DNA of 64,000 nucleotides from Proteobacteria bacterium CG1_02_64_396 (lineage in GTDB: Bacteria; Pseudomonadota; MNWR01; CG1-02-64-396): assembly GCA_001872725.1 (NCBI GenBank), contig MNWR01000081.1, forward strand, positions 33,849 through 97,848, read 5' to 3'. The position numbers and the translations under genes were made by a program. The number at the start of each line of letters is the position of its first letter. Position 1 is the stretch's first letter. The notes under the pieces were generated by a model. That model worked only from the letters and a program-made list of their open reading frames with translations, was not told the DNA's origin and did no database searches. Of this stretch, positions 28,563-64,000 are shown in pieces.

Positions 28563-29881
28563 CCCCGCTGCCCCAGGATCCCCTGGTCGCCCGCCTCTGG
28601 CCCGAGGTGGCCTGGTTGATCCAGCGCTTTCCCTCCGGCGCGTTGGTCGCATGTTCGGGTGGGGGCGATTCCTGCGCCCTGCTCGATCTCATGGCCCAAT
28701 GGGCTCTTAAGGGCCAATGGCCCTGGGCGGTGGCGACCTTCGACCACGGCCTGCGCCCCGAGGCGGCGGTCGAGGCGCGCTGGGTCGCAACCCAATGCAA
28801 CACCTACGGCGTCGACCATTTTCTGCTGCATCCCCCCACCCCCCTGCACGATCTTCCTGGCAATCTTGCCGACAACGCCCGTCGCCTGCGCTATGAGGCG
28901 CTTGGCCGCTGTGCCCGCGATCTCGGGTTTTCGGTGGTGCTCACCGCCCACCATCTTGACGACCGCATCGAGGGGATGTTGATGGCGCTGCTGCGCGGCG
29001 GCTCCCCCCAAGCCTTAGCCCCCCAACCCCCCTTACGCCCCCTGGAGGGCGATCTGTGGTTGGCCCGCCCCCTCAACAACGTGGGTCGCGGCGAACTGCG
29101 TGCCTACCTAGGGGGTCGCCATCTGCCCTGGCTGGAGGATCCTTCCAACAGCTCTACCCATACCGGGCGGGGATCGGCGCGCCACCGCTTGCTCCCTTGG
29201 CTAGAACACAATCAACCGGGGGCGCGCGAGGGTCTGGCCGCCAGCCTGAGCATGTTGTCCCAACAATTGCAGCGGGACGAACGGGCGGCCCTTCCCCAAA
29301 CAAGATGGCATTGGTGGCGGCGCGATCCGGCGCTTTCCCCCCGACAAGCCATGGCTGGATTGGGCTTGGGGGTCGCCCTCTCGGGCCGTGAGGAGCGGGA
29401 AATCCTTACCCGCTGGACCCGTTCCGAAGGTCGCTGGGACAAGCCCGGTTTAACCTTGCTGTGGCACGGCAATTGGGCTGGATGGGGCAGGGGGGGGCTG
29501 CAGCCCTGGCAAGAAGGGGTGTGGAAGGAAGATCAATCTGTTTTCGACTTGGGCGATTGGGGTTACCTCTGGCGTGACGGCGGGGCGGGGTTGGCCGCCC
29601 CCCCCCATCCTTATTGGGGACGGCTGATTTGGCTTGCGGCAACGACTTGGCAGGTTAAGGTGGCGCCACCGCAACATCCCTGGCCCGCAGGCCGCTCGAA
29701 GGTGGTGGCTCGCCATCTTCAGGGTGGCTTGCTCCCCCGCTGGCTGCGGGCCCCCTTTCCCGCCCTGGGTTCGATGGAGGGAGCGATCTTGGCACTGCCG
29801 GGCATTGCGTCCGCCCGCCACGAAGGACAAGGGGTTCGGGTTGGATGGTGCCCCCCATGGTGGCGGCTGGGGAGACGCTGA
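28559..29881 (+). CDS. tilS: tRNA(Ile)-lysidine synthetase
   Basis: PP-loop SGGGDS (LVACSGGGDSCALLDL) and TilS N-terminal architecture. TTG start overlaps the mlaB stop (TTGA). 440 aa. Confidence 0.75.
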   Translation: MTPLPQDPLVARLWPEVAWLIQRFPSGALVACSGGGDSCALLDLMAQWALKGQWPWAVATFDHGLRPEAAVEARWVATQCNTYGVDHFLLHPPTPLHDLPGNLADNARRLRYEALGRCARDLGFSVVLTAHHLDDRIEGMLMALLRGGSPQALAPQPPLRPLEGDLWLARPLNNVGRGELRAYLGGRHLPWLEDPSNSSTHTGRGSARHRLLPWLEHNQPGAREGLAASLSMLSQQLQRDERAALPQTRWHWWRRDPALSPRQAMAGLGLGVALSGREEREILTRWTRSEGRWDKPGLTLLWHGNWAGWGRGGLQPWQEGVWKEDQSVFDLGDWGYLWRDGGAGLAAPPHPYWGRLIWLAATTWQVKVAPPQHPWPAGRSKVVARHLQGGLLPRWLRAPFPALGSMEGAILALPGIASARHEGQGVRVGWCPPWWRLGRR

Positions 29882-30143
29882 TTCAATGCAGGATGCCTTT
29901 AATCGGCGATTCTCTAGGATTCTCTTGAGAGGACCCCATGACCGTGTGTCTCTGATGCGACAGCCCCTCTTACGCTTTGTCACCCCCGCGCCTCCGGTTT
30001 TCTCGCGAGTGAAATCTTGACAGGTTTGCTCGGTTGACCGCCCCTTCGTGGGGGATGATGATCATCCCAACGGGTTTCGCTAATGAGGGTCCGAATTAGC
30101 ATTCAAAGTGTCCGAATACAAAAAGAGAAGAAAGGAGTCCCCC

Positions 30144-54026: not shown

Positions 54027-54195
54027 CTAGGAGTCTGTCGGACTTGAGATTGTCCTACTGCGCCGGCGGGTAATCGGTCCAAATTTCCCCGGTTTTTCGT
54101 CACATAGCCACCACTATGATCCTCAAAACCGTGAAAATTTGGCCTCGATTCCCCACTCGGCTCGCTACGGACGCTCAAGTCCGACAGGCTCCTAG
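54027..54195. repeat. 22-bp inverted repeat (1 mismatch) flanking about 125 bp
   Basis: CTAGGAGTCTGTCGGACTTGAG (54027-54048) vs CTCAAGTCCGACAGGCTCCTAG (54174-54195). The right arm overlaps the last codons and stop of the rrf2 gene. Confidence 0.6.
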
Positions 54196-57359: not shown

Positions 57360-59012
57360 TCAAGCGCCGATGCCGCGCAAGGTCGCCTGCAAGGTCGCCG
57401 CCACCGGATCGCGCCCCAGCGCCACCCCATAGCGGGTGTGCTCGCCCAGCCGCACCGCCACATAAACCGCCGCCTGGGCGTCGGTTCGGGTTGGATGGTC
57501 GAAGGCGTGCTGGGCGTAGTCGGCGATTTCGACCGCCATCCCCAAGCCCCCGTGCAGCGCCGCCGTAAAGGCCTCCAGCGGCCCCGCCCCTTCGCCGGTG
57601 CAGGTGAGGGTGAGTCCGTCCCGCTCGATGGTGGCGCTGATGCGGCCGTGGTCGAAGTGGTGGTCGAGCAGCTGCCAGCCCATCACGCTCAAGTAGTGAT
57701 CCCGAAACAGATCCCCCAACCGCTGAGGGTCGATCTCTCCTCCGTGCCGGTCGGCCTGCCCCTGCACGATGGCCGAAAAATCGACCTGCAACCCCCTGGG
57801 CAGTTGAAAGCCATGCACCGTCTCCATGACATGGGCGATCCCCCCCTTGCCCGACTGGCCGTTGATCCGGACCAGATCCTCGAACCCCCTTCCGACATCG
57901 CGGGGATCAAGGGGCAAGTAGGGAACCTCCCAGGCTTCACCATCCCGCCGCGCCGCCAGCCCTTTGCGAATGGCATCCTGATGCGAGCCCGAAAAGGCGG
58001 TGAAGACCAAGCCTCCCGCATAGGGGTGGCGGGGGTGGACCTGCATCCCGGTGCACCCCTCGTAGGTGCGGGCGACCGCGTCGATGGCCGAGAAATCGAG
58101 CCCGGTGTCGATCCCCTGGGTGTGCAGGTTCATGGCCAGCGTGACCAAGTCGAGGTTGCCGGTCCGCTCCCCGTTGCCGAAGAGGGTCCCCTCGACCCGA
58201 TGGGCCCCCGCCAAGAGTCCCAACTCCGCCGCCGCCGCTGCCCCCCCGCGATCGTTGTGGGGGTGCAGGCTGACGCTAACTCCCCGCTCAGGGGTCAGTC
58301 CGTGGTCGGAAAGACGGCGCACCATCCACTCGATGCGGTCGGCGAAGCGGTGGGGGGGCTCGACCTCGACGGTGGCGGGCAGATTGAGGATGCAGGGGCG
58401 CTCTCGGCTCGGCTGCCACGCCGCCATCACCGCCTGGCTGATCGCCAAGGCGAATTCAGGCTCGGTGGCGGTGAAGCTCTCGGGTGAATACTCGAAAACC
58501 CACCGGGTTTCGGGCTGAGCGGCAGCACATTCGGCCACCACCTGCGCCGCCTCCACCGCCAAGTCGATCACCTGACCCTGGGATTTACCAAAGACCACCC
58601 GCCGCTGCACCGGCGAGGTCGAGTTGTAGAGGTGCACAATCGCCCGAGGCGCCCCCTTGAGGGCGGCAAAGGTGCAGCGGATGTGGGGTTCCCGGGCCGG
58701 GGTGAGTACCTGAATGGCGACGTCATCAGGGATCGCACCCAGCTCAATCAGGGCGCGGACGAAGTCGAATTCGACCTGGCTGGCCGAGGGGAATCCGACC
58801 TCGATTTGCTTAAAACCGATGGCGACGAGCTGCTCGAAAAGCCGTTTTTTGCGCGGAGCATCCATCGGGTCGATGAGCGCTTGGTTGCCGTCGCGCAAAT
58901 CGACGGCGCACCAGACCGGGGGTTGGGTGAGGGTCGCCTCGGGCCAGGTGCGGTCGGTGAGGATCACGCCGGGGGAGGGACGGTATTTGCCGGGGATAAA
59001 AAATGAAGACAT
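57360..59012 (-). CDS. leuA: 2-isopropylmalate synthase (long form)
   Basis: DLRDGNQALIDPMDAPRKKRLFEQLVAIGFKQIEVGFPSAS, HPHNDRGGAAA, C-terminal LeuA dimerisation/regulatory domain. ATG at complement of 59010-59012; 550 aa. Confidence 0.9.
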   Translation of the reverse strand: MSSFFIPGKYRPSPGVILTDRTWPEATLTQPPVWCAVDLRDGNQALIDPMDAPRKKRLFEQLVAIGFKQIEVGFPSASQVEFDFVRALIELGAIPDDVAIQVLTPAREPHIRCTFAALKGAPRAIVHLYNSTSPVQRRVVFGKSQGQVIDLAVEAAQVVAECAAAQPETRWVFEYSPESFTATEPEFALAISQAVMAAWQPSRERPCILNLPATVEVEPPHRFADRIEWMVRRLSDHGLTPERGVSVSLHPHNDRGGAAAAAELGLLAGAHRVEGTLFGNGERTGNLDLVTLAMNLHTQGIDTGLDFSAIDAVARTYEGCTGMQVHPRHPYAGGLVFTAFSGSHQDAIRKGLAARRDGEAWEVPYLPLDPRDVGRGFEDLVRINGQSGKGGIAHVMETVHGFQLPRGLQVDFSAIVQGQADRHGGEIDPQRLGDLFRDHYLSVMGWQLLDHHFDHGRISATIERDGLTLTCTGEGAGPLEAFTAALHGGLGMAVEIADYAQHAFDHPTRTDAQAAVYVAVRLGEHTRYGVALGRDPVAATLQATLRGIGA

Positions 59013-59664
59013 GGGATGCCTCGAATTTGAAAAAGGTGGAAGCCCCCTCCTTAAGGGGAGGAAAGGCATCGCCAGGGGACCGGGCTCCTACCGCTGAGAC
59101 GAACGGTCGCAGCAGGTGTAGGAGCTCGGTCTCCGGGCGATTCGAAGGCAAGGTCCACCGTGATGATCGGCCTTAAGAGGGGCCAAACGCAGCGGACGAA
59201 AACGGGCCGACGAATCGTTGGAAAAGGGGATCAAGCGTGGCGTACCGCTACGGCCTCCGCCCGGCCACGCAGGGGGAAACCCCTTACGGACGGCGACCGC
59301 TGGGCAGTCGTAGGGACAGCAGTAGGGGGGGTAGAGCGGACGAATCCTGGGCGCTGCCGTAGATCGGCATTGCAGGGGTGAAGCTCAAGATGTGGAAGGA
59401 GGTGTCTTGCATGACCAGCCCCGGTGGGGATCCCCTTGTTCAGGGGTACAACGACTCAAGGACAAACCGGCCCCCTCTTCGCGGAAGGGGAAACTTCAGC
59501 GCGGCAGTAGGCCTAACAGTCGTTGGGTGGGCTGGGTGTTCATAGGGCGCGGATGGTGGGCAAAGTGGGGGGCAGGGTCAAGGGATGCTTGTTTCTCTTG
59601 CCATTGAATGGGGTAATGGCGGAGTCGATGTCGACAACCTCATGGCGAAGGAACAAGGAGCTCA

Positions 59665-60483
<819 letters not shown>

Positions 60484-60521
60484 AAGGGGATTCAGCCCCC
60501 TTGTGGAGATCTCTAAGGAGA

Positions 60522-60562
60522 CGCCGATTCAAAGCCTCCTGCCTTGAATCGGCGCTTTCTTA
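60522..60562 (+). terminator. Candidate terminator after the DUF2726-like gene
   Basis: GCCGATTCAA / TTGAATCGGC 10-bp stem, 11-nt loop, followed by GCTTTCTT (weak T-tract). Confidence 0.45.
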
Positions 60563-60608
60563 GAGGTTTCCTTGTTTCGAGGATGCCGACGGAAACAAAG
60601 GAGGGACG

Positions 60609-61703
60609 ATGCTGGTTTTGCTTGCAGGCAAGGACAACGCAGTGGTGCCACTGACGCTCGAAGCGGTTCAGAGAGGGTCGCCGCTTGACGCCATCGCCAA
60701 GGATCATCGCGATCTGCTCCTGGATTTGGGGTTGGCCCCGGAGGCGTTGGACGACCCTTTGGCTGCCGACCCACCCCACTGGGAGGGCAACGTGTTCACC
60801 CATACGTGGTGGAATACCGACCCCCCCTTCGATTCGGGCAGCGTTACCGCCTTCCTCTTCGATCCCTCCCGAGCCACGACCACCCATACCTGCCTGGTGT
60901 TGGGGGGCTCGGACGAAAGCTGGGTGTTCGCCTGCGACATCCTCGACGAGAGTATGTGGCGTTTACAGGCCGCCTCGATGTTTCGGCATGCGCTCGTTTT
61001 GCTCGATCCCCAGACCTATGCGGTCCATGCGGCAACTGAGAACCCAATCTCGGGACCGAATCCGTCCGACGTTCTGCCTCCGGTGGAGGTGACGACCGGG
61101 GTGGAACGCAGCGAGCTACGGGCCGAGACGGTTTCGCAAGCGGTAGGTCCATTGGTCGTCTACCGAGTTGCCAACACCTCGATCACGCCGGAACTCAAGG
61201 GGCTTCATGAAGGGCGCGTCCAACGTCGGTTTTGGGGCGATTACGCTGCATATGCATTGGTGATGATGTTTTGGCTGGTGTTGTTTTGGGGGGGCTCCCT
61301 GTGGCAGGGCCTCATCGAATCGTTGTTTTGGGTGGCGCTGGTTTTGACGGTTGTTTTCGTCACGTTGTGGCGTGATCCCAGGTGCGATGACGTATTGGGT
61401 CAAAAGACCATTCAGTGGAGCGGCCGAGATCGGCTCATGACGTTGTCGCTCTTCGCAGTCATTGCGGCTGGAATTTGGGGGATGGAATACCTGAAGAGAA
61501 TCTATGGCGTCGATATCGCTCAGTTCAGCAGAAATATAGTTCTGTCCCTCGTGACGTTGGGTGCGCTTGGGTCGTTGGTGGGGAGGTTCCGGCACAAAGC
61601 AAGGTGCAAGGTGGCCCTGGAAGAGGTTTGCTTGTGCCCATCCGAACCAACGCTGTCATCGCTTGATTCATTGGTATTTCAAGGAACAAGGACCATTTCA
61701 TGA
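60609..61703 (+). CDS. Hypothetical membrane protein (about 220-aa N-terminal soluble domain plus 4 TM helices), lower GC
   Basis: AAAGGAGGG SD 4 nt before the ATG. TM helices YALVMMFWLVLFWGG, LFWVALVLTVVFVTLW, LSLFAVIAAGIWGM, IVLSLVTLGALGSLVG. No family recognised. Confidence 0.45.
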   Translation: MLVLLAGKDNAVVPLTLEAVQRGSPLDAIAKDHRDLLLDLGLAPEALDDPLAADPPHWEGNVFTHTWWNTDPPFDSGSVTAFLFDPSRATTTHTCLVLGGSDESWVFACDILDESMWRLQAASMFRHALVLLDPQTYAVHAATENPISGPNPSDVLPPVEVTTGVERSELRAETVSQAVGPLVVYRVANTSITPELKGLHEGRVQRRFWGDYAAYALVMMFWLVLFWGGSLWQGLIESLFWVALVLTVVFVTLWRDPRCDDVLGQKTIQWSGRDRLMTLSLFAVIAAGIWGMEYLKRIYGVDIAQFSRNIVLSLVTLGALGSLVGRFRHKARCKVALEEVCLCPSEPTLSSLDSLVFQGTRTIS

Positions 61704-63349
61704 CACGAGAAACTCAAAAGATCCTGAGGATTGCCCTCCCCCTGTTGTTACCCTTCATCGGCTGTCTGTATCTGCTGTTCGATGCCCAGCAGAAGCTGCA
61801 AAACTACGACTGTCACATGCCGTTGTTGGCAACCCAGCAGGGGTTCATGGTGGCCACCTGTAACGGCTTGATTGAGGCGACTCCCGCAGGCGAGATTCTG
61901 CGCTCGTCCGAATTCCCCCCTTTGCATCTCAGCCCCCAAATCTACGCTCTGGCTACATCGGGCTCCGATGACCTGCTTGTGGTCGATATGAACGGAATCG
62001 ATGGCGCACGTGGCATCAACCGCTGCGATCATGCGTTGAGTCAGTGCACGGTGGTGTTGCCGCAAGAGCAGGCCGAGCTCTCCCGCCCTTACGGGATCCA
62101 TGAGATCGATGGTCAGGTGTTGGTCAACGAACCCAATCGTGACCGGGTGCGACAGTTCGACGAGCACTGGCAACTGGTTTCCAGCTTGCCCCTCTCCCTG
62201 CATGAACCGTATGGGCTTGATGTTCGGCAGGGATGGCTGGTGGTGGCCGATACGGGCAACCAACGGTTGGTGTACGCCCAGAAACAAGGGCAGGGGGGGT
62301 GGATCCAAGATCGAATCGTTGATTTCGCTGCGATGGGGGAGGGGGTGGACTTCAGTCGTCCCCTCAAGGTGGCGTTCGGCCACGAGGGTGAGACCTGGGT
62401 GTTGTTGGCCGATTCGCTCGATGTGGGGCGGGCCGTTGTCAGAATCGACGCTCAGGGGCAGGTGTTGAACACCTACCTTCCCCCCGAGGATGCCGAGCTC
62501 TTCGATATCCTTGCCCTACCGGATCGGTTGATTGTCAGCGATTCGGCTTTGCACACCTTGTACGAGGTCGGCCCAAACGGGGGAATGCAGACTTTGGCCC
62601 AGGGCAGTCCTCTACAAGCGTCACTCCATGAGGTCTATGAGGAGGGGCAGCAGGTTCGGGGCCAGTTCAAGTGGGGGCTCTTCGGGGCCTGTGCCATTCT
62701 GATTGGCTATTTGTTGTTGCGGAGCTGGCAAGAGTCGCGTCAACAGGGGGGGGAACGGCCGCAATCTGCATCCCCTACCATGGTGGAGGGGATCGATCCC
62801 CACAATCCCGAGATTCGTTGGATCGACCCCGAGGGGGAGAGCAGGAACCAAATGGATCGAGCCTTGTTGCTCCTAGCGCTGCTCCCCTTACTGGGTGTCG
62901 TCATCATCGGAGTGAGGTTTTTCGGGGAGGATGTCGATCTGTGGGAGGTCCTGACCCAAGGTCCCCTCTTGCTTGTGATCCTGGGGATGGTGGTGTTGAT
63001 TGGCCGCACTTGGTCAAGTCAGGTTGCCAAACGGCGGCTTGGTGTGCTGGGTGACGTCATTCTGGTGCACAAAAGCGATGGCGCGGTGGTGGCTTCTCAG
63101 GCCGATCAGGTGCGCTATGCCGCCAACGTTTTAGTCATCGGGGACGAGGTGATCCAGACGACGATGCCCCCCTTGTCGACGCAGCAGTTGATGACCCAGG
63201 TTTACCCGTTGTTGATTCGAGCCAAACCCATGGATGCGGGTGAGCTGCAAAAGCTCACGTTCAGCCAACAAACCCAGGGCATCTTGGTGGTTGGACTGCT
63301 GATCTTCCTCTTCTTCATTTGGATGACGCTTGAGCAGTTTTTCTTGTAA
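61700..63349 (+). CDS. Hypothetical membrane protein with N-terminal signal/TM, NHL-like beta-propeller repeats, three internal TM helices and a C-terminal TM
   Basis: ATGA overlap with the upstream gene. NHL-like repeat motifs (LVVADTGNQRLVY; LIVSDSALHTLYEV). TMs WGLFGACAILIGYLLL, ALLLLALLPLLGVVIIGV, LLLVILGMVVLIG, ILVVGLLIFLFFIW. Confidence 0.45.
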   Translation: MTRETQKILRIALPLLLPFIGCLYLLFDAQQKLQNYDCHMPLLATQQGFMVATCNGLIEATPAGEILRSSEFPPLHLSPQIYALATSGSDDLLVVDMNGIDGARGINRCDHALSQCTVVLPQEQAELSRPYGIHEIDGQVLVNEPNRDRVRQFDEHWQLVSSLPLSLHEPYGLDVRQGWLVVADTGNQRLVYAQKQGQGGWIQDRIVDFAAMGEGVDFSRPLKVAFGHEGETWVLLADSLDVGRAVVRIDAQGQVLNTYLPPEDAELFDILALPDRLIVSDSALHTLYEVGPNGGMQTLAQGSPLQASLHEVYEEGQQVRGQFKWGLFGACAILIGYLLLRSWQESRQQGGERPQSASPTMVEGIDPHNPEIRWIDPEGESRNQMDRALLLLALLPLLGVVIIGVRFFGEDVDLWEVLTQGPLLLVILGMVVLIGRTWSSQVAKRRLGVLGDVILVHKSDGAVVASQADQVRYAANVLVIGDEVIQTTMPPLSTQQLMTQVYPLLIRAKPMDAGELQKLTFSQQTQGILVVGLLIFLFFIWMTLEQFFL

Positions 63350-63379
63350 AAATTCAAGCATCTCAAAACGAAACAGGGG

Positions 63380-63820
63380 GTGGCCATGAACGTCGCACGT
63401 CGGCAACACCTCGTTACGTTGGCTTTGTTGCTGTGTTGGCTGGGAGCGCCCCCCGCCTACGCCCAACTTTACAAGTGGGTCGATGCGGGCGGCGTTACCC
63501 GTTTCGGCGATACCCCTCCTCCAGCGGGAACCTCGTTCGAGTCCCGCGCCATATCCCAAGGGTTGGTGGTCGAGATCTACACCACCGATTGGTGCCATTG
63601 GTGCAAAAAGGCCAAGGCCTTTTTTGCGGCGCAGCATGTGATCGTGCACGAGTACGACGTCGAAAAAGACCCCGCCGCCGACCGCCGCCGCATGGCCTTG
63701 ATCGGCAAGCGGGAAATCCCGGTCGTGGTCATCGACGGACAGGTCCCCATCGTCGGGTTCAACGAAGAGAAGTACACCTTGGGGCTGGAGGCTTGGCGCC
63801 AGGCCCATCCCGCACGCTAA
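63380..63820 (+). CDS. DUF4124 domain - glutaredoxin-like (CxxC) fusion protein, secreted
   Basis: Signal peptide ending PPAYAQ; LYKWVDAGGVTRFGDTPP (DUF4124 signature); thioredoxin-fold segment VEIYTTDWCHWCKKAKAFF...REIPVVVIDGQ. Confidence 0.6.
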   Translation: MAMNVARRQHLVTLALLLCWLGAPPAYAQLYKWVDAGGVTRFGDTPPPAGTSFESRAISQGLVVEIYTTDWCHWCKKAKAFFAAQHVIVHEYDVEKDPAADRRRMALIGKREIPVVVIDGQVPIVGFNEEKYTLGLEAWRQAHPAR

Positions 63821-63843
63821 AAGCCTGATCCATCCCACAAAAA

Positions 63844-63870
63844 GGGGGCCAAACGGCCCCCTTTTTTTGA
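63844..63870 (+). terminator. Rho-independent terminator
   Basis: GGGGGCC-AAAC-GGCCCCC followed by TTTTTTTGA. Confidence 0.75.
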
Positions 63871-64000
63871 TGCCCCAACCCTCAGCGCCGATTGATGCGG
63901 CCTGTCGTAGGAGGCGACCCCGTCGCCGAAGCTCTGTTTTTGGTCTTTGCGCAGCGTCGCCGAAAAAGGCAGGAGGCCTTGAATCAGCGCTTCCCTAGGA

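Follow-up and report, generated by a model that had tools for sequence, protein, structure and literature searches.

What two overlapping genes for membrane proteins do, and with which of their neighbours they belong, is the question raised by a locus near the right end of a 64,000-nucleotide stretch of contig MNWR01000081.1 (Proteobacteria bacterium CG1_02_64_396, assembly GCA_001872725.1), here called the window. We refer to the two as gene 1 and gene 2; upstream of them lies a gene of the DUF2726 nuclease-fold type and downstream a DUF4124-glutaredoxin-like gene (grx). An earlier sequence-only reading had taken the pair for part of an accessory island, possibly a defence or envelope-sensing system, on account of its composition, its lack of homologues and its nuclease neighbour. 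We found gene 2 to be a member of an unnamed and rare family of membrane proteins, mainly from Gammaproteobacteria, and that the locus offers no evidence for a new defence system and opens no long-standing question. The reading we prefer, to which we give a probability of about 35%, is a lineage-specific envelope operon of three genes, with gene 2 providing a periplasmic NHL platform, grx a periplasmic CxxC oxidoreductase and gene 1 a membrane subunit.

Gene 1 (60609-61703, 364 amino acids [aa]) and gene 2 (61700-63349, 549 aa) are open reading frames (ORFs) of the forward strand and form a real, tightly packed pair. The start codon of gene 2 overlaps the stop codon of gene 1 by ATGA (61700-61703), and all coordinates were exactly those given by the sequence-only reading. 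A strong Shine-Dalgarno sequence, AAAGGAGGG, was read directly ahead of gene 1 on the same strand (60597-60605), and AAGGA stands 7 nucleotides (nt) ahead of the gene 2 ATG. Coding periodicity, with GC content falling from the third to the first to the second codon position (GC3>GC1>GC2), was kept over the full length of both genes.

The family of gene 2 was visible to some searches and invisible to others. No Pfam match was obtained at E<=0.1 and no sequence match in NCBIfam, PADLOC, PHROGs or the PDB, and a word-indexed search of 5.8 billion clusters returned nothing, not even the identical protein, although at least 21 recorded contigs encode it. An exhaustive phmmer search of 1.84 billion representatives matched 174 proteins at E<1e-3. 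Among the matches listed (150 of the 174) were at least about 100 full-length, single-stretch relatives of 500-620 aa, corresponding to about 100 clusters at 50% identity, while the rest were giant multi-NHL proteins that matched the propeller only. The closest relatives among those listed, both matching over the full length, were P0003 (28% identity, E 1e-65) and P0004 (31% identity, E 8e-60). Because the word-indexed search missed this family, its negative results are not to be taken as a sign of orphan status.

Members of the gene 2 family are unnamed and mostly singleton clusters, sporadically distributed among metagenomes and metagenome-assembled genomes of Gammaproteobacteria. The sole member from an isolate, WP_087112510.1 of Parendozoicomonas haliclonae, is annotated as hypothetical; its presence in a cultured bacterium opens the family to experimental study. 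In an alignment of 46 sequences we observed that C109, C116 and W374 (numbering of gene 2) were invariant, that 34 of the 46 matched Pfam NHL (PF01436, clan CL0186; best E 6e-11) and that the consensus included a VADTNxHRI-type motif. With this alignment as the query, the word-indexed search returned mainly generic NHL proteins. Four long members (P0043, P0044, P0099 and P0109) also have in common a conserved domain of about 75 aa at the N-terminus (MxxFNLTFSGE...RFFSGE...L.R.L...A......LG), joined to the transmembrane (TM) helix and propeller by a very long repeat linker rich in Ala, Glu, Lys and Arg. A fusion to gene 1 was considered for these extensions and rejected, as they are not gene 1-like and have no Pfam match.

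An AlphaFold model of gene 2 built from the 46-sequence alignment reached a pLDDT of 89.5 and a pTM of 0.80, and it bore out in detail the anatomy that had been read from the sequence (TM helix, NHL-like propeller, TM helix, loop, two TM helices, small domain, TM helix). Helix 3-33 forms the TM anchor and is followed by a six-bladed NHL beta-propeller at residues 42-298 (61823-62593, forward strand), which contains C109 and C116 on adjacent strands. A long helix (304-351) holding TM2 leads into a loop, in which the invariant W374 lies on a short strand, and then into a TM hairpin (helices 379-407 and 414-443). Residues 446-505 make up six short strands (446-486) and a helix (494-505), and the last TM helix spans residues 513-548, giving an inner-membrane protein with five TM helices in all, as also judged from hydropathy and charge. 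The propeller was superposable on solved NHL domains and its fold tested as six-bladed. When the whole model was used in a fold search, NHL propellers ranked at the top, and the propeller dominated the match lists. From the topology and the positive-inside rule, the propeller is predicted to be periplasmic and the small domain at 446-505 cytoplasmic.

The best-conserved part of the family apart from the NHL region is a C-terminal module at residues 362-549 (62783-63346, forward strand), delimited by the secondary structure of the model and by the motifs PxIxWI, RIGxLG, YS and YPLLK. Neither a profile of the module nor 25 individual modules compared with Pfam at E<=5 gave a significant Pfam or PDB sequence match, and no family of bacterial PH (PHb/bPH) domains was among the recurrent Pfam matches of the 25. 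Matches of the module profile to TALE repeats in the PDB were rejected as a short-motif artefact. The order of strands and helix at residues 446-505 fits a PH fold, and on this topology we regard the domain as possibly PH-like. In membrane-anchored PHb families a TM hairpin is directly followed by a small intracellular domain consisting of a beta-sandwich plus a helix (Xu et al. 2010, PMC2817789). Residues 379-505 have the same layout in the model as such proteins (DUF1200, DUF2244 and YdbS/YdbT-type), with the domain inside by charge. In contrast, the module profile did not significantly match any bPH family of Pfam or any PDB chain, and gene 2 has an extra preceding strand (at W374), a trailing TM helix and an N-terminal propeller, which described bPH proteins lack.

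Gene 2 is thus a variant of the well-known extracytoplasmic NHL propeller proteins, and its combination of NHL propeller, four further TM helices and putative PH-like module is an undescribed architecture in which nearly half of the length lacks a Pfam model. The locus defines an unnamed family of bacterial membrane proteins whose conserved C-terminal half, with four TM helices and a predicted cytoplasmic domain, is not covered by Pfam.

The gene that follows gene 2 on the same strand, grx, occupies 63386-63820 and encodes 144 aa from its ATG, or 146 aa from a GTG at 63380. Its product matched the Pfam families DUF4124 (4e-12) and Glutaredoxin (9e-14), as the sequence-only reading had proposed. 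The N-terminus reads like a signal peptide, with ...PPAYA at the predicted cleavage site followed by QLYKW, and the protein carries a CHWC motif (C72-H-W-C75 in the numbering of the 146-aa form). With grx as the query, relatives were distant (30-34% identity over most of the protein), and a 56% match spanned only a 34-residue DUF4124 segment.

The gap between gene 2 and grx measures 36 nt and contains no hairpin, and grx has a Shine-Dalgarno sequence of its own (GGGGG). An intrinsic terminator follows grx at 63836-63869 (GGGGGCC-AAAC-GGCCCCC, then T7, with an A-run on the other side). Upstream of the pair, the 125-nt spacer between the stop codon of the DUF2726 gene and gene 1 holds three hairpins, the central one a near-perfect inverted repeat with 31-nt arms and a 5-nt loop (60505-60571) that resembles a repetitive extragenic palindrome (REP). 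For the spacer as a whole (60484-60611), the folding energy is -58.6 kcal/mol (z -4.7). Because of the ATGA overlap, the short hairpin-free gap and the placement of a terminator only after grx, gene 1, gene 2 and grx make the most economical unit, and they probably form one operon (60609-63820). The REP-like palindrome appears to be the upstream edge of this unit and the terminator its downstream edge.

Under our preferred reading, the N-terminal TM helix of gene 2 would anchor the propeller in the periplasm, where it would serve as a platform to which a protein of the envelope or a ligand binds. The signal-peptide-like N-terminus and the CHWC motif of the grx product, taken with hydropathy and charge, would place an oxidoreductase in the same compartment as the invariant Cys pair of the propeller. 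The co-transcribed product may then work with the propeller, either in the redox-dependent handling of an extracytoplasmic substrate or in redox control of the propeller's own C109/C116 disulfide. Gene 1 would add a translationally coupled, lineage-specific membrane subunit with a cytoplasmic domain of about 210 aa. Together, gene 2 and grx would reproduce as separate polypeptides a pairing of thioredoxin fold and NHL domain that is fused in other proteins, namely SOQ1 of plants, human NHLRC2 and the actinobacterial 'NHL domain-containing thioredoxin family protein'. SOQ1 is involved in photoprotection and NHLRC2 in human disease, and the role of the pairing is poorly understood in both.

In contrast to these fusions, the two parts are encoded here by separate genes, gene 2 has an additional module with four TM helices and a predicted cytoplasmic domain, identity is only 12-14%, and the adjacency of gene 2 and grx is not kept in other members of the gene 2 family. 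We therefore do not count gene 2 and grx as members of the fused group, and see in them a possible functional analogue. If this is true, the locus is a split bacterial version of the thioredoxin-fold and NHL pairing.

Several observations weigh against the three-gene operon as a functional unit. The resemblance of gene 2 to SOQ1 and NHLRC2 is a generic NHL similarity, since TRIM2, PAL and lactonases scored equally in the fold search. Our neighbourhood set comprised 32 loci with gene 2 relatives, representing 25 distinct groups, and at none of the 32 did tblastn or phmmer find a homologue of gene 1, of the DUF2726 gene or of glutaredoxin. Conversely, none of seven loci with relatives of grx carried a gene 2 relative. 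What ties gene 2 to grx functionally is their adjacency in a single clonal population. Residues 446-505 are called PH-like from their topology, without sequence support, and the role given to gene 1 is conjectural, for a gene with no family, no usable model and the poorest codon fit in the window. We found no sigma-70-like promoter match at 59000-64000, so that the unit may also share a transcript with the DUF2726 gene.

The same anatomy could serve an envelope sensor or transducer, in which the propeller senses a ligand, the TM helices signal to the small cytoplasmic domain, the soluble domain of gene 1 is the output and grx is a bystander. A described case of an NHL propeller outside a membrane is the extracellular domain of PknD from Mycobacterium tuberculosis (PDB 1RWI), which is thought to sense a ligand. 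PknD is joined by one TM helix to a cytoplasmic Ser/Thr kinase, whereas gene 2 crosses the membrane five times and carries no kinase, nor any other output domain that could be recognised. In the approximately 100 clusters of the gene 2 family, the N-terminally extended members included, we found no catalytic or signalling output domain, be it kinase, GGDEF, HTH or another, and neither a nuclease family nor a regulator gene recurred among the clustered neighbours in the 25 locus groups. Gene 1, the proposed output, has no recognisable domain and is absent from all other loci of the family. We consider this account unlikely, though worth keeping in view. Of the roles suggested by the sequence-only reading, one facing the envelope fits the topology.

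By hydropathy and charge, the N-terminal part of gene 1, about 210 aa long, is soluble and has no signal peptide, and four TM helices follow at about residues 213-231, 235-253, 277-297 and 305-325, as had been read from the sequence. The C-terminus is a basic tail containing Cys. The helices obey the positive-inside rule, and both termini are predicted to lie inside. No Pfam, NCBIfam, PADLOC, PHROGs or PDB sequence match was found for gene 1, no plasmid, phage or viral relative, and no paralogue within the window. A single-sequence AlphaFold model (pLDDT 43) was unusable, a failure expected for an orphan. The word-indexed search returned only the protein itself, at low sensitivity, and since the same search overlooked the gene 2 family altogether, gene 1 can be called an orphan only provisionally. 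The view that neither protein could be placed in a family holds to that extent for gene 1, but not for gene 2.

Composition was the first of the arguments for an island, and we compared the pair with the 46 other probable genes of the window (mean GC 0.627±0.034). The whole window has 62.4% GC, below the background of about 65% assumed in the sequence-only reading. Gene 1 (GC 0.580) and gene 2 (0.579) both lie at z -1.4, and at third codon positions the values were 0.693 (z -1.8) and 0.722 (z -1.1), respectively. The pair is therefore mildly low in GC, as claimed, but five other genes of the window are as low or lower, and in synonymous-codon fit only gene 1 is an outlier (z -3.1, the poorest of 48 genes), gene 2 being unremarkable (z -1.2). 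The low GC looks striking because two genes just upstream, leuA (66%) and a methyltransferase gene (69%), are so GC-rich. The lowest values (0.53-0.57) were observed at 61134-61900, the TM-coding stretch, where GC1 drops; this dip is accordingly an effect of amino-acid composition. Composition thus argues weakly for an island in the case of gene 2 and moderately in that of gene 1.

The codon fit of gene 1 bears on a further explanation, that in this GC-rich genome it is a gene in decay or an ORF of spurious length, leaving gene 2 as the sole functional gene. Such a view would agree with the solitary setting of most gene 2 relatives and with the missing homologues and confident fold of gene 1. 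It is difficult to reconcile with a strong, well-spaced Shine-Dalgarno sequence, the ATGA coupling to gene 2, the codon periodicity along the whole of its 364 codons, four TM helices that are well formed and follow the positive-inside rule, and the lack of any better overlapping ORF, and the homologue search on which it leans is the one that also overlooked the gene 2 family. We regard it as very improbable. What survives of the sequence-only reading is the lineage-specific nature of the cassette, given a unique pairing and a gene 1 for which no relative could be detected.

The surroundings of gene 2 relatives elsewhere were mostly ordinary. Most of the relatives were solitary amid chromosomal genes such as those for cytochrome bc1, hslUV and argB, and others lay near pilMNOPQ, rpmE, a H+-PPase gene, genes for pseudouridine synthases, or ubiB. 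All-against-all clustering gave a single recurrent neighbour family, a membrane protein that lacks annotation, measures about 215-250 aa and was found in six of the 25 groups (L030 6302-6991, L033 4246-5004, L035 1-648, L037 1400-2083, L038 4310-4975 and L041 242-943). Its gene lies directly upstream of the propeller gene on the same strand, with a 4-nt overlap in L033, and the protein is likely a partner of that gene 2 subclade. We also noted its layout of about three TM helices, about 90 aa of soluble domain and one more TM helix, with 16 invariant positions and no Pfam match. Membership of gene 1 in this partner family was rejected by hhalign (probability 0.05%). A coupled polytopic membrane partner encoded upstream thus recurs in the gene 2 family, by way of non-homologous proteins.

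A different setting is seen at L015 and L017, where the two relatives closest to gene 2 (28-31% identity) lie within same-strand arrays of many small ORFs of no assigned function. They bring up a conflict system other than classical defence, a polymorphic-toxin or interbacterial-competition locus in which gene 2 and a fast-evolving gene 1 would be genes of an immunity or accessory type. The small ORFs of the arrays often span the membrane and one array includes a SUKH-4 protein; the provisional orphan status and outlying codon usage of gene 1 and the sporadic, mostly singleton clusters of the gene 2 family point the same way. Against it, no toxin domain, Rhs/VgrG/PAAR protein or secretion gene was detected by Pfam in the window neighbourhood and none was recognised at L015 or L017, most family members sit amid housekeeping genes, and the SUKH-4 domain was observed in only one of the two arrays, a single case. 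Pfam searches of the unannotated neighbours of gene 2 relatives gave no support for a conflict-system context. We hold this explanation to be quite unlikely.

As separate observations, the layout at L015 (1-12800) and L017 recalls the immunity-gene arrays of polymorphic toxin loci, with several ORFs of 2-4 TM helices and with DUF6892, DUF1272 and DUF2007 proteins besides SUKH-4. At L018 (623-2001), a tandem pair of paralogous secreted proteins (231 and 226 aa; E 1e-34 between them), neither matched by Pfam, is encoded immediately upstream of P0177, a relative of gene 2.

The nuclease neighbour was the remaining ground for a defence role. The DUF2726 gene (59665-60483, forward strand) encodes a membrane-anchored PD-(D/E)xK protein with a Top1 zinc ribbon (Pfam DUF2726 2e-39, Zn_ribbon_Top1 1e-9) and is a clear member of its family. 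DUF2726 has been placed in the PD-(D/E)XK superfamily, where its function was given as unknown, and its genes were found to have undergone multiple horizontal transfers (PMC3424549). An anti-phage module in which this nuclease works with a sensor and an effector formed by the two membrane proteins would draw on that history of transfer, on the position of the gene 125 nt upstream on the same strand, and on the mildly low GC, the atypical codon usage of gene 1 and the lineage-specific pairing. On the other side, none of the four proteins (gene 1, gene 2, DUF2726 and grx) matched PADLOC at E<=0.1, the absence of DUF2726 homologues from all 32 gene 2 family loci shows no association of the nuclease with the pair elsewhere, and a strongly structured REP-like spacer separates the two. 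We consider such a module highly improbable.

Signs of mobility were likewise lacking. No tRNA gene was found in the 64-kb window, the Pfam annotation of the neighbourhood showed neither an integrase nor a transposase, no relative from a plasmid, phage or virus was found, and the wider neighbours are housekeeping and stress genes (leuA, globin, HSP20 and RND efflux). The accessory or defence island proposed at the outset was therefore unsupported, with mild composition, no mobility or PADLOC signal, a nuclease that is not conserved beside the pair, and relatives for gene 2. As part of the tentative three-gene reading, the DUF2726 gene would be an incidental neighbour outside the unit and the locus would not be a defence island. 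That all four same-strand genes make up a new system of defence or conflict that is lineage-specific and triggered at the envelope, with the propeller detecting an invader or toxin and gene 1, the nuclease or both as effector, seems to us extremely doubtful.

The repeats around the locus were also considered as island borders and rejected, as copies are present at 29.9 kb and 54.0 kb. Relatives of the REP-like palindrome occur at 29876-29920 and 63966-63998, making at least three intergenic copies in 64 kb that share the core GCCGATTCAAAGCC...GCCTTGAATCGGCGCTT. A separate element of about 170-230 bp, similar to miniature inverted-repeat transposable elements (MITEs), has terminal inverted repeats CTAGGAGTCTGTCGG...CCGACAGRCTCCTAG and was found in two copies of opposite orientation, at 54027-54195 and at L011 7270-7495, just past the right end of the window. 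Because of these copies elsewhere, we take the repeats to be dispersed REP- and MITE-like elements. No Rfam element was found at 58900-64000. An 85-aa minus-strand ORF annotated after grx in metagenomes overlaps the terminator and the REP-like copy, reaches up to the edge of the MITE-like element and is probably spurious. Between the divergent leuA and DUF2726 genes, about 600 nt (59070-59664) hold no convincing ORF; this segment has a strong positive GC skew, with no Rfam match (E<=0.1) and no sigma-70-like promoter match.

The DUF2726 gene also carries, as the sequence-only reading had seen, a coding microsatellite, (GTGGTC)n at 59681-59726, which encodes a poly-Val TM anchor. All 14 of 14 recovered contigs, from several groundwater samples, were 100% identical over 5 kb save for one unit of this microsatellite, and they represent one clonal population. 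Variants of the DUF2726 protein of 271 and 272 aa were rejected as differing start-codon calls, and one of 259 aa as the product of a run of N at the microsatellite in assembly GCA_002323185.1. In two groundwater samples the repeat was one unit (6 nt) shorter, giving a real 269-aa form and thus an in-frame polymorphism in the length of the TM helix.

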